Source: an uncultured virus (IMG/VR IMGVR_UViG_3300042874_000014) (taxonomy: Duplodnaviria > Heunggongvirae > Uroviricota > Caudoviricetes > Crassvirales). From it: 64,000 nt of DNA. The notes under the pieces were generated by a model. The model made no database searches and was not told the origin of the DNA. It saw only the letters and a list, made by a program, of their open reading frames with translations. The first letter of the stretch is position 1, and every line of letters starts with the position of its first letter. Where the stretch lies: IMG/VR virus record IMGVR_UViG_3300042874_000014; one strand, given 5' to 3'. Positions 2,473 to 6,229 of the stretch are shown here, in pieces. The position numbers and the translations under genes were made by a program.

Positions 2473-2595
2473 CGACATACTTAACATCTTCATCATTCTT
2501 AACATCTTCGGTCGGTACTAGCATTCTCATCATCTTCATCATCTTCGTCAAACACTAGCATACTACATTAAACATCAATTTCGAACCTATAATAC

Positions 2596-2892
2596 AATAC
2601 TAATACTAATACTAATACTAATACTAATACTAATTATATATATAATAATATATAATATATTATATATTATAATATATTATATTATTATTATTATATATAA
2701 TATAACAGTTGAATATATATTGCTAAATCTATTACTAAATCTGTTTTTAAATCTATTGCTAAATCTGTTTTTCTATCTGTTTTTCTATCTATTTTTGTAT
2801 CTGTTGAGGTATGTGATTTGATAAAAAGATTGTAAAAAGATTATAAAAAGAAGACAAGAAGAAGACAAGAAGAAGACAAGAAGAAGACAGAT
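2596..2892. repeat. microsatellite cluster: (ACTAAT)n, pure A/T tract, 12-bp CTAAATCT-type repeats, (AAGAAGAC/AAG)n
   Basis: Tandem units directly visible. Confidence 0.85.
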
Positions 2893-2943
2893 TTAAGTAT
2901 ATGTTTAAGTATATAAGAAGATACGTAAATCTCAAATTTATAG

Positions 2944-2972
2944 AAAATCCCCCGTAAGGGAGGAAGATGTGC
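2944..2972 (+). repeat. dispersed CCCCCGTA motif, copy 2
   Basis: aaaatcccccgtaagggaggaagatgtgc. Confidence 0.9.
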
Positions 2973-3059
2973 TACGTTGCTATGTAGTAAACTTGAATAA
3001 TTTGTAATTAATTATATATAATAGGATATATAATAGGATATAATGATAGATATGATATG

Positions 3060-3396
3060 ACATATGATGTGATGTAAAATTTATATAAAATTTATGTGAT
3101 GTGATATAAATATAAATTTATGTGATGCGATGTGATGATATATATATATATAATATGTGATATATGTGTGATGCTATATTTTATGTGATATTATGTGATA
3201 TTATGTGATATGTGATATTATAAATTATGTGATATTATTTAATATGTGATATTTAATATAAAATTTATGTGTGATATATAATATTTATAATACGTGTGAT
3301 ATAATATTTATAATACGTGTGATATAATATTTATTATTTATAATATAATATGTGATATTTAATATATATAATATAATATGTGATATTTATGTGATG
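3060..3396 (+). repeat. AT-rich array of roughly 20 TGTGAT boxes (candidate origin or regulatory array)
   Basis: Co-oriented TGTGAT boxes, including a tandem duplication ataatatttataatacgtgtgat x2 at ~3278-3323. Confidence 0.8.
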
Positions 3397-3581
3397 CGAG
3401 TAAGTCGTAACCACCCGGTGCGACCGTCGGTGCGAAATGGTAGGATTGAAGTAGGGGGGACATCATGTGAAATACATGGACTTTCTGGAGTGTTCAAAAC
3501 TTGCCGGTGTACTACCACTGGTATCATATAATAGCTAAGGTGCATGAGGTAACTCGTAGTATGCACCTATTCATTTGTACA

Positions 3582-4058
3582 ATGAGTAAATTAGCTCCTG
3601 CTGGTAGTAAGCTTACAGAACGTTCTGTAACTAACTCTACTATGCGGGTTGCTTCTATTACAATCACTGGCAGTAAGGTTAATATGAACCTTGTTGATAG
3701 TGATAACGTTGGACGTTGGATTGTATTATCAGAGAAGCAGTATCGCCACACATTGGCAGGTATCGGTCTCGGTAATACGGCATCATTAAACAGAACCGTT
3801 CTTATGGTTAAAGGTAGTACAGCTTCTGTATCTATCGAAGACCGTAAGGTAGGTGATGTTTATATGAATCAAAACAGTAGCGACGAGAACGCTAGTAAAC
3901 TTTGTGTTGTTGAAAAAGCACATCAGAGTTTGTCTATCGATTCTCTATCGTTGTCTAAGACTAAGGAGACTATGTTGCTAGAAGCGACTATGTCTGACTT
4001 GCTTAGAGAACGTGATGTTACGGTTGATTCAGATGATGCATCTGACGACTTGCGTTAG
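3582..4058 (+). CDS. hypothetical protein with acidic C-terminal tail (first plus-strand gene)
   Basis: Likely start MSKLAP at 3582; ends DSDDASDDLR. Confidence 0.7.
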   Translation: MSKLAPAGSKLTERSVTNSTMRVASITITGSKVNMNLVDSDNVGRWIVLSEKQYRHTLAGIGLGNTASLNRTVLMVKGSTASVSIEDRKVGDVYMNQNSSDENASKLCVVEKAHQSLSIDSLSLSKTKETMLLEATMSDLLRERDVTVDSDDASDDLR

Positions 4059-4069
4059 TAATAGCGAGC

Positions 4070-4615
4070 TATGTGGGTACGTATAACCTACAGAAAAAGT
4101 GTCCAGTAATGGATTAAGTACGTGATGTTTTGTTGCTTTTAGTATAAGAAAAGTAACTACTCGTTGAATCGAGCACGAAATAGAGCATGGAATCACAGTC
4201 GGTATTCTGCCATGCTCTTACTAATACCATTGGGTCTGAATAGACCTCTTAACCAACTACTGTATCTTGTATATGAGTATGACTTCGATGTCGAGTTGGT
4301 TCTAATATGGTGGTTACTAACCCATATACCTAAAGCAAGGATTGGTATATGTTGTATGATTAATTTGACAAATTAAGATTACACCTCTTGCCCTTGTAAG
4401 GAGTAGACTTCCTTATGGCTAACCATCTATGATAATGTGCACAATTATTATAGACATGGTAATTACAATTAACGAGACTATATTATATACACGTCAGGTA
4501 TAATAGATGTCATGTCCGGTGATACAAGTAAGCTACTACTTGTTGAGGGGGTTCTCTATAACCAACTACTATACGTTATGTATGAGTATGACTTCGATGT
4601 CGAGTTGGTTCTATG
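4070..4615 (+). ncRNA. candidate structured ncRNA with duplicated ~54-nt module
   Basis: At least 10 consecutive hairpins; identical 33-mer at 4272-4304 and 4581-4613. Confidence 0.45.
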
Positions 4616-4619
4616 TGCA

Positions 4620-4820
4620 ATAGTAGTACTATTTCTTTACTTAGATGGTCGCACGTCTAATATAGTAGTACTTATTGTTACGTTTAGATGGTAGTACTAT
4701 TCATATAGTAGTACGTATTGCGATATCTTCATGGTCGCACGTCTAATATAGTAGTACAAGTAGCGGCATCTTCATGGTCGTACAAGTAGCAATAGCACAG
4801 CAACTTGCGACATCTTCATA
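4620..4820. repeat. degenerate 43-bp tandem repeat (about 5 units)
   Basis: atagtagtac at 4620, 4662, 4705, 4748, alternating with atggt(c/a)g(c/t)ac at 4645, 4688, 4731, 4774. Confidence 0.85.
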
Positions 4821-4862
4821 CAACATACAACACGTTGCCCTAGTTCATAGTTTTTAACCAGG

Positions 4863-4927
4863 CCCAAGCGTGCTAAGTAAATCAAGTGAATTATATAAAC
4901 TTACCCTACGTCCCAAGCGTGCTAAGT
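4863..4927 (+). repeat. 16-bp direct repeat cccaagcgtgctaagt x2
   Basis: Exact copies at 4863-4878 and 4912-4927, both followed by similar caag(t/c)gaa. Confidence 0.85.
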
Positions 4928-4955
4928 TTAACAAGCGAAATATCAAATCTTATAT

Positions 4956-5084
4956 ATGTTTAAAGTATTAGTTTACAATCAAGCCACTGGTAAGGTTCGT
5001 ACGTTGGTTTTCAATAGCTCAACCGAAGCATATCACTGGCTACAAGTAAACTCTGACTACGAATTGATGGAAGTTCTATCATAA
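4956..5084 (+). CDS. small protein (42 aa)
   Basis: MFKVLVYNQATGKVRTLVFNSSTEAYHWLQVNSDYELMEVLS; AT-rich leader and plausible composition. Confidence 0.55.
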   Translation: MFKVLVYNQATGKVRTLVFNSSTEAYHWLQVNSDYELMEVLS

Positions 5085-5192
5085 TAGTAGTCATAGTTTA
5101 GCTTAATTTATCTCTTCTGCCACGTAATGTGGATTCTGTTACAGTATAGGCTGTATATGTGTTAGTATATATTAATCTTTAATACCATCGTC

Positions 5193-5294
5193 ATGTTTTA
5201 CATAGGTTATATAGTATATGTATCGTTATTATTAGCTCTAGCAATAGGAGTAAATGCTCGTATTAATAGAGTAAATAGACGATATGAGGAATAG
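5193..5294 (+). CDS. single-TM micropeptide (33 aa)
   Basis: MFYIGYIVYVSLLLALAIGVNARINRVNRRYEE: hydrophobic stretch followed by basic residues. Confidence 0.45.
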   Translation: MFYIGYIVYVSLLLALAIGVNARINRVNRRYEE

Positions 5295-6229
5295 TAGGGG
5301 CTGAGCGTGGTATGTCATATCTTAGGGTATGATGTGCCACGTATGTCCCATTCTATATGCTATATGCAGGTGGTATATGATGATATATCTGTTTAATATG
5401 CTAATTTGATTACTATGCTACTTGAATGTGGTATATAATTAGGTATGTTTGATTGAATATAATGTGAATTATGGTAGGTTTAATGATGTAAATTATAGGA
5501 TTATTAGTGATTTAATATATAGTAACAAGTGATTTTGGCGGACTGTGCTGGGATATCTTGATTGATATAGAATGACTAAAATGTGATTTATGGTGTAAAT
5601 TATAGGATAAATTATAAGATTATTAGTGATTTAATATGGGCTTAAAGGTATGATTAATGGTATGATTAATGGTATGTTAAGCGGATTGAATGGTTGATTA
5701 TGTGATAAATTATAGTGTTATTAGTGATGTTATATGGGCTAATGTATCTAGTTTAGTACATACTGCACCCAAGGGTGATATATACTCCCACATCTCTTCC
5801 ACTATCTCACATAATATCCCAGTTAAATCTCTTCCTCACTCTCACCTTAAATCTCACATTACATATTACTTTAAATCTCACCTTAAACATACCCTTAATC
5901 AAGCATATTACCTATTATATTACTTGATTTTACCATATGTTACTTATATTACCCTAATTAGATATACTCGATTAGTTTCAACATTAGACTAATCATATTA
6001 AATTAGCTTAGATAACCATATATATTAAACATGTTACAATATCGGGTCTGTATAATATACTATATACATTTAATATTGCAAGCGTGTTATATATTGTAAT
6101 CTTAAATCAATTAATTCAACCTATGAATGTGATAGCCTTTACGTGGCTCGTAGGATAAGTAAGCTATATGCTGAAACCAATAATCACACAGATATTTATA
6201 ATCAGTTAAACAATTAAACATTTTAGAAA

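Follow-up and report, generated by a model that had tools for sequence, protein, structure and literature searches.

The stretch at positions 4070-4615 of the window, the whole 64,000-nucleotide piece of viral DNA analysed here, raises the question of what a hairpin-rich sequence with an internal duplication does at the start of a phage early region. An initial annotation had read it as a large structured non-coding RNA of undescribed type, with repeated modules for processing or protein binding. For the Crassvirales phage phi14:2, the available text of 10.1101/2020.03.07.982082 describes a virion polymerase that transcribes the early genes, and two early intergenic regions that yield abundant, persistent RNAs. 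The same text states that the function of early non-coding RNAs in the Crassvirales is unknown, that the crAss virion polymerase prefers single-stranded DNA, and that crAss early promoters have no known motif.

The early region and its first gene

The window is part of a crAss-like (Crassvirales) phage genome. It has the crAss gene order and the DFDxD motif of the virion RNA polymerase (as DFDID, at residue 3061, inside a 3702-aa ORF), its tail ring protein matches CrAss_Ring_1, and the nuclease encoded at 1-681 matched 31 phage records at 32-47% identity, the listed ones being crAss-like or gut phages. The stretch or a part of it is contained in 13 sequencing runs, labelled cave, biofilm or soil and none of them RNA.

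The module region lies just right of a strand switch, behind a gene whose product is SSB-like. A profile built from two syntenic crAss-like genes (loci L073 and L075) finds this product among 4924 ORFs with an E value of 7e-12, the top seven matches of a Foldseek viral search are all crAss proteins, one of them annotated as SSB, and VIA-align returned mostly OB folds, with a weak best Z of 5.3. The structure model has a pLDDT of 60, a first prediction with a pLDDT of 35.7 having been unusable. Pairwise BLASTP of the product against the L073 gene was not significant, the atlas and representative searches returned no close relatives of it, and IMG/VR searches with the two flanking proteins returned no related locus. 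In prototype crAssphage, an annotated ssb likewise stands at the start of the early region. Given its position behind the SSB-like gene, the stretch most likely continues the first early gene as untranslated sequence.

The eight hairpins of the initial annotation (4072-4092, 4102-4113, 4160-4173, 4183-4217, 4233-4246, 4397-4415, 4422-4460, and 4524-4543) each fold alone, and in this sense the region is structured as described. It is not a single, conserved large RNA, as 4231-4622 is optional and the overall fold is modest, with fold z-scores of -2.70 for 4060-4620, -2.32 for the block 4231-4622, and -0.73 with a 250-nt span limit; among 49 control windows, seven reach a z of -2.3 and six a z of -2.7. 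The neighbouring coding regions fold much better than the stretch, namely the RNA of the SSB-like gene (window 3480-4070, + strand; z -7.65) and an RNA that contains two small genes, 4956-5084 (42 aa) and 5193-5294 (33 aa) (window 4900-5420, + strand; z -5.35). Both small genes end in tandem stop codons, and the first is preceded by AACAAGCGAAA, which is common to the syntenic place in L073.

The fold of the SSB-like mRNA was compared with the listed differences of the strain of run X5 within 3498-3849, which make up 34 of the 40 entries listed. Eighteen of these 34 fall on unpaired positions, three keep a pair, and six make up three compensatory pairs, leaving seven that break pairs, several of them beside alignment gaps, against 17.8 expected; 18 of the 34 are synonymous as read. 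The strong fold, the compensatory pairs, and the scarcity of broken pairs together suggest that the gene is under selection for both its protein and its RNA fold. Judged from these strain differences, covariation supports the fold of the SSB-like mRNA better than that of the module-bearing block. The first genes of six other crAss genomes, two of which were chosen by position or size alone, have fold z-scores of -1.2 to -4.4. Regions behind the SSB gene in other crAss phages are often strongly folded and have no module in common with the window. In crAssphage ctcc615, a 700-nt non-coding region behind the first early gene (L158 6300-7010, - strand) has a z of -10.9 and no Rfam match, and a 14-nt stretch of it that makes a T-loop-like hairpin recurs in the early region of phi14:2 (L160 2905-3590, + strand). 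A/T-rich low-complexity tracts with a 12-nt periodicity (window 2560-3400 and 5420-6000), which possibly belong to an origin or genome-end region, flank the structured early region; similar tracts occur in cr127_1 and prototype crAssphage. The 8-mer CCCCCGTA occurs 13 times between window positions 2459 and 61914, on both strands.

The stretch joins a conserved part to an optional, exchanged block, and its components are listed in Table 1. The conserved part is also found in strains that lack the block, a block-less contig covering 4017-4230 with 3 of 214 letters different. A third, degenerate module within the conserved part has a 4-bp closing stem, a 9-bp arm, a UA linker, and a 4-bp stem with a UUGAAU loop that stacks on the closing stem. 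As this third module lies outside the block, block-less strains keep one such arm, and the window strain has three. The spacer between the two full modules contains a 24-codon ORF (4429-4503) of doubtful reality and with no Pfam match, as well as an SD-like AAGGAG inside the hairpin at 4397-4415. A perfect 8-bp inverted repeat with a 1-nt centre (window 4364-4380), also inside the block, is operator-shaped rather than an RNA hairpin. Downstream of the block, the tandem units are present in both allele types and are covered in runs X5, X6, and X7; a duplicated 16-nt motif lies at window 4863-4952.

Table 1. Components of the early non-coding region and its upstream gene, in window coordinates.
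Feature	Position	Strand	Basis
First early gene, SSB-like (OB-type fold, acidic tail)	3582..4058	+	profile, Foldseek, VIA-align
Conserved 5' part: two small hairpins, three-way junction, 9-bp hairpin	4059..4230	+	fold z -1.96
Third, degenerate module	4121..4177	+	MFE = centroid; pair probabilities 0.74-0.98, 100-nt span
Optional block, 392 bp	4231..4622	+	contig comparison
Module copy 1	4251..4304	+	repeat and folds
Hairpin-rich spacer between modules, candidate released RNA of ~255 nt	4305..4559	+	fold z -1.96
Module copy 2, better-folding copy	4560..4613	+	repeat and folds
Five degenerate 43-44-nt tandem units	4620..4830	+	repeat families D3, D9, D13

The duplicated module and its likeness to a tRNA top half

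The duplication was found as claimed, in the form of a direct repeat of 55 nt whose copies are 91% identical and 309 nt apart; an 18-nt core of the module occurs twice in the window, against 0.02 expected. In copy 1, 4251-4258 pairs with 4294-4301 to close the module, the variable arm spans 4259-4278, one A is unpaired, a T-arm-like stem with a UUCGAU loop occupies 4280-4293, and the tail reads CUA. The last 30 nt of copy 2 are identical to 4275-4304, and the five differences between the copies all fall in a 13-nt arm (P 3.7e-4). The structure common to both copies consists of an 8-bp closing stem, an arm of variable length, an unpaired A, a 4-bp stem with a UUCGAU loop, and the CUA tail, with the 4-bp stem stacking directly on the closing stem to give a 12-bp stack. 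The variable hairpin does still pair, all 19 module pairs being kept in both copies; the pair changes between them are one compensatory and one one-sided, and with two sequences only, the shuffle control was not beaten (252/500). The GAGTAT element is fixed as proposed but, in the best model, is mostly paired: AGU closes the arm, the following U extends the last stem, and a single A is left unpaired.

The proposed three-way junction holds for copy 2, with arm pair probabilities of 0.7-0.9, and is absent from the MFE structure of copy 1, in which the arm has probabilities of ~0.15-0.2. Under local folding, the closing stems have probabilities of 0.82-0.93 and the T stem of 0.43-0.80 across both copies, the arm and T stem of copy 1 being weak (0.15-0.44). 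Without a span limit, the two copies prefer to pair with each other (p ~0.8), and modules cross-paired in this way would still give a tRNA-like closure around a 363-nt RNA. Both copies also form the three-way junction under DNA folding parameters.

As modelled, each module resembles the top half of a tRNA, with a 12-bp stack, a T-loop-like UUCGAU, and a variable side arm. With the acceptor taken as 7 bp, the NCCA end of a tRNA corresponds to UCUA in both copies, and the last base of the invariant 30-nt core falls exactly on what would be A76. With 4 bp, one of them a U-G pair, and a 6-nt loop, the T arm is shorter than that of a tRNA (5 bp and 7 nt), and there is no D loop. According to the available text of PMC11143913, hairpins made of acceptor, T stem, and T loop are cut by bacterial RNase P, which measures a length of 12 bp and also processes the phage M3 and C4 RNAs; the pairing of the RCCA is called essential in cells. 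Set against these minihelix substrates, both modules have a stack of ~12 bp (8+4 pairs), and the UUCGA of the T loop (UUCRA plus two bases) is followed by one base only; a 3' RCCA tail was found in neither copy, both having UCUA.

An acceptor-plus-T-arm geometry descriptor and a T-loop pattern were devised after the module had been seen, so that their chance rates are inflated and their significance is overstated. In the window, the descriptor matches only the two modules; shuffled windows gave 0.25 matches (10 of 40 had one, none had two) with this post hoc descriptor. In 1.33 Mb of crAss loci, it matches 29 places, comprising 17 tRNA genes (three confirmed by Rfam, the rest by eye), one tRNA-like element, and 11 non-tRNA places that represent five distinct sequences. 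With the equally post hoc loop pattern, three T-loop-like hairpins lie in 4059-4955, against 0.018 expected, and five on the whole + strand.

The Rfam comparison returned nothing, tRNA included, at E values up to 10 bar two chance matches. A tRNA is ruled out, as ARAGORN in its default mode calls no gene, Rfam finds no tRNA, and the element has no D arm, a 4-bp stem, and a 6-nt loop. A tmRNA was rejected likewise: ARAGORN in tmRNA mode calls no gene even at an 80% threshold, there is no Rfam match, and the third stem pair is C-G, not G-U. In mitochondrial mode, ARAGORN reads copy 2 as a D-armless tRNA among 15 such calls in the window, and the 80% threshold gives 30 calls; as the program is unspecific at lowered thresholds, these calls were given no weight. 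A Y RNA of the YrlA type was set aside, there being no D arm and no TROVE gene among the 32 window proteins scanned, of a contig longer than the window. A CRISPR repeat or mini-array (spacer 279 nt), an integron attC site, a REP element, and a type I toxin were all rejected by eye against their consensus. Elsewhere among the crAss loci, a tRNA-like element of 92 nt (L073 3899-3990, - strand), whose acceptor and T arms are good and whose middle is long, scores below the Rfam gathering score, and a 62-nt shortened tRNA-like gene (L145 168-229, - strand) scores 34.5 bits with the Rfam tRNA model.

Searches for relatives returned the two copies themselves. The initial annotation had proposed a covariance model to find the module in other crAss genomes; this model (R1), narrow because it was built from two sequences, recovered only the two copies from 85 sources (1.35 Mb), and gave nothing significant in the window without filters, in seven loci including phi14:2, or in five whole related records. 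The 18-nt core has one match in IMG/VR, in a coding context and due to chance, and 41 in metagenomes, none with module flanks (0/41); a 19-nt core gave no real match among 27 in GTDB, a gapped module pattern none among two in IMG/VR, and blastn against phages and plasmids no match. Beyond the strain-contig copies, IMG/VR, metagenomes, GTDB, and phage and plasmid records held no homologues for covariation. As for antisense targets, the rest of the window matches the complement of the block over 14-15 nt at most. In the literature searched, which covered few subscription papers, no description was found of the module or of tRNA-like modules in crAss early regions, and the available portions of PMC4919913 and 10.1101/460113 contain nothing specific to it.

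An optional block exchanged between strains

The strain comparison used contigs from four of the 13 runs (X3, X5, X6, and X7; X4 and X8-X13 were left out) and rests on the listed 40 of 123 other-letter entries, 12 of 40 indels, 15 of 40 loose ends, and 25 of 53 pieces. Contigs of X5 (depth 29) and X7 (depth 5.2) lack the block and join 4230 to 4623, the same 22 other letters replacing it in both runs; read by eye, these letters pair with the right flank into a 13-bp hairpin and look like the copy 2 arm. The window-type allele is seen in X3 over 4374-4863, and in X6 at the right junction only (the end of copy 2 and the right flank, depth 22.6). The downstream contig of X6 has 42 other letters and seven gaps, the same counts as the block-less X5 contig. 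From the filled junction and the X5-like downstream background of X6, which come from separate contigs, allele and background seem to assort independently.

At a depth of 120, a 363-nt X7 contig spans 4275-4613 with seven other letters and 26 gaps (one base missing at 4306, 25 additional ones in the copy 2 arm), whereas the flanks have depths of 2-6. The divergence of this block copy, 7 of ~313 aligned letters (98% identical), compares with ~8% between sister strains in the flank. A second X7 contig enters the module at 4270 from at least 255 unlike letters; its A/T arm is shorter by 3 nt, and on the 5' side of the closing stem, whose other strand is not covered, one A is replaced by C. Residual depths of 146.2 and 2 x 146.4 in X7 point to three further contig ends with the core, in keeping with the three X7 contigs that can each be placed at two positions. 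On the evidence of these contigs and depth residuals, an abundant X7 replicon combines other flanks with a spacer that is 98% identical and with no fewer than two modules, perhaps three. A rare contig in X5 also runs from the module core into other sequence. Across the contigs, the side arm is up to 25 nt longer or 3 nt shorter, and the 30-nt core is invariant.

The X7 copy also bears on whether the region codes for protein. Repeat coding, either by the ORFs 4164-4376 (70 aa) and 4512-4694 (60 aa), which share a frame, or by a cassette for the 24-codon ORF, could draw on a 309-nt spacing that is a multiple of 3, on five differences that amount to two synonymous and two conservative codon changes, on one assembly in which the 60-aa product is called as a gene, and on the two stops that end the 24-codon ORF, as they do three neighbouring genes. 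The single-base loss at 4306 and the 25-nt gain break both long frames, however, the 70-aa ORF crosses the block edge, no family match was found, the starts are not preceded by the A/T-rich leader seen in front of this phage's genes, and double stops are present after 4 of 16 other genes as well, so that coding is highly improbable. The earlier statement that the stretch has no convincing ORF stands, both long frames being broken in X7 and neither matching a family.

The X7 363-nt contig begins and ends on the same 30 letters, which fits a circle and a linear repeat pair equally. This shape at high depth, together with two structured direct-repeat modules ~0.3 kb apart that combine an invariant core with a variable arm, would be expected of an uncatalogued self-cleaving ribozyme, the block then being a retrozyme-like unit that releases a 309-333-nt monomer. 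We regard this as very improbable, as the same contig shape is expected in graph assembly from a linear genome with two copies, no ribozyme family in Rfam matches, whether at the gathering score or with E values up to 10, and no hammerhead, HDV-like, twister, or pistol core was recognized by eye against the consensus; the single unpaired junction base would also leave little room for an active site, and the proteins scanned include no reverse transcriptase.

Core invariance may reflect only recent duplication or conversion. A wholly neutral origin, in which a repeat-prone region was recently duplicated, its hairpins are background, and the arm varies as hairpin loops mutate fast, is in keeping with block z-scores inside the genome's range, with short duplications that are common in this region as well as in 4 of the 5 crAss early regions compared with it, and with the dispensability of the block; but the differences cluster in the arm and keep its pairs, the core is unchanged across several contexts, and the tRNA geometry recurs beside a third similar fold. 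On balance this origin is distinctly unlikely.

The lost block reaches 20 nt past copy 1 and 9 nt past copy 2, and the empty allele retains no solo module. With breakpoints outside the repeats, a single crossover between repeats does not account for the step between the empty and filled alleles. This observation bears directly on the possibility that the modules act at the DNA level only, serving a small non-autonomous cassette as PeSL-like or MITE-like sites of recombination or integration within a hyperplastic early region, and that their likeness to tRNA is incidental. The other flanks and the mismatch between block presence and flank ancestry would suit such a cassette, as would the junction formed under DNA parameters, an insert readable as TG...CA, the SSB-like neighbour gene with the preference of the crAss virion polymerase for single-stranded DNA, and the precedent of the T4-type phages, in which, according to the available text of PMC2839356, repeated PeSL stem-loop elements drive the gain and loss of small segments. 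In contrast, the repeats do not mark the ends of the block, neither a target-site duplication nor a terminal inverted repeat was seen, the modules have no promoter-like site, a third module-like fold lies outside the block, and the G-U pairs favour a + strand RNA; we consider action at the DNA level alone unlikely.

Proposed processing marks and recombination repeats, and other readings

The module is a real feature of this DNA, and its function we infer. Tentatively, and with somewhat less than even confidence, we favour a reading in which the stretch is an exchangeable cassette in an early non-coding transcript, its modules being RNase P/Z-type processing marks that double as recombination repeats. 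Early in infection, the region would be transcribed from left to right as the non-coding 3' end of the first early transcript, and each module would fold locally into a tRNA top half whose tail has UCUA instead of NCCA. A cut by host RNase P is predicted at the 5' foot of the module, and RNase Z or exonucleases may trim the 3' tail. The cuts would leave stable small RNAs, among them the spacer RNA of 255 nt or one of 363 nt that is held closed by pairing between the modules. As near-identical direct repeats, the modules offer homology for recombination, through which module number could change and the block could move between related phages, as PeSL cassettes do. The presence or absence of the block (its joint is seen in 2 of 4 runs), its occurrence with other flanks, and a side arm that varies while the 30-nt core and the pairing are kept argue for this processing-cassette reading; the short T arm, the UCUA tail, the lack of a D loop, the weak arm and T stem of copy 1, the cross-pairing preferred without a span limit, and the A-to-C change in the closing stem of one X7 copy argue against it, and the recombination step is opposed by a lost block that overshoots both repeats and leaves no module. 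The initial proposal of a phage RNA with repeated processing or protein-binding modules fits this anatomy.

By analogy, the module would work most like an RNase P minihelix substrate, yet its tail is not RCCA. With the phage M3 and P1/P7 C4 RNAs (as far as PMC11143913 was available), it has in common a 12-bp coaxial stack, a UUCGA-type loop, a short unpaired 3' tail, and a phage setting; it differs in having 8+4 rather than 7+5 pairs, a 6-nt loop, UCUA rather than RCCA, and an extra variable arm, and in being duplicated within an optional, exchangeable block. The block, for its part, may be likened to a PeSL-bounded segment without a promoter. As with the PeSL cassettes of the T4-type phages RB49 and phi1 (available text of PMC2839356), repeated stem-loops occur in a variable early region and a few hundred bases are present or absent between close strains. 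Unlike a PeSL, the module has no promoter or SD element, a search of the modules for an early promoter of PeSL type finding no sigma-70-like or Bacteroidota-type site; there is no clear ORFan between the copies, only two copies lie in the window, and block loss removes both, with breakpoints 20 and 9 nt outside the repeats.

The early non-coding RNAs of phi14:2 (g004-g005 and g005-g006; available text of 10.1101/2020.03.07.982082) are like the stretch in being long and non-coding, in the Crassvirales early region, and on the early-gene strand. One phi14:2 stretch has a tRNA-like RNA, a tmRNA, whereas the stretch in the window has no tmRNA and is a candidate transcript only; the phi14:2 early region gave no sequence or model match to the module. 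The tmRNA, in the early non-coding region at L160 4031-4502 (+ strand), scores 46 bits against a gathering score of 47, with an E value of 2.6e-15. It probably corresponds to one of the two RNAs that the preprint leaves without a function, its placement at g005-g006 being deduced from the current annotation. Bacterial and phage Y RNAs (YrlA; available text of PMC4201824) likewise place a tRNA-mimicking T-arm domain in a non-coding RNA, and some of them are cut by RNase P; in contrast to YrlA, the module has no D arm and no Ro60-binding stem, and no TROVE protein is among the 32 scanned.

These comparisons also leave room for modules that are not cut at all, and that instead, on a stable early RNA, act as decoys of the tRNA elbow or as sites for proteins, either to titrate a host defence protein that targets tRNA or to bind a protein of the phage, with copy number (one or three) tuning the dose. 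Three T-loop-like arms within 500 nt, a module number that varies, a non-canonical 3' tail, and the early position are what such sites would show, and there are precedents in the persistent early RNAs of phi14:2 (10.1101/2020.03.07.982082), in an early TROVE gene of crAss001 (PMC8375218), and in the tRNA mimicry of Y RNAs (PMC4201824), as far as the available texts of these sources describe them. However, the 32 window proteins scanned, from a contig longer than the window, include no TROVE match, there is no conserved anticodon loop, and no partner was identified, which leaves uncut decoys rather unlikely. A bolder extension of processing is improbable: a mobile, non-autonomous RNA cassette with tRNA-mimic ends, excised by host tRNA-processing enzymes from the first early transcript as an end-closed RNA of ~310-360 nt with its own function, for example as a decoy against tRNA-targeting defence, would spread between unalignable phages and vary in copy number through its modules.

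Returning to the favoured reading of processing marks that double as recombination repeats, the locus offers a natural plus/minus allele of a putative structured early RNA segment, together with a short, defined module that has predicted cut sites. The result for the SSB-like mRNA suggests that RNA structure is a general feature of the transcript made by the virion polymerase. If the favoured reading is true, tRNA look-alikes would mark off the parts of the first transcript in crAss-like phages, and non-coding cassettes would be exchanged from one genome to another.
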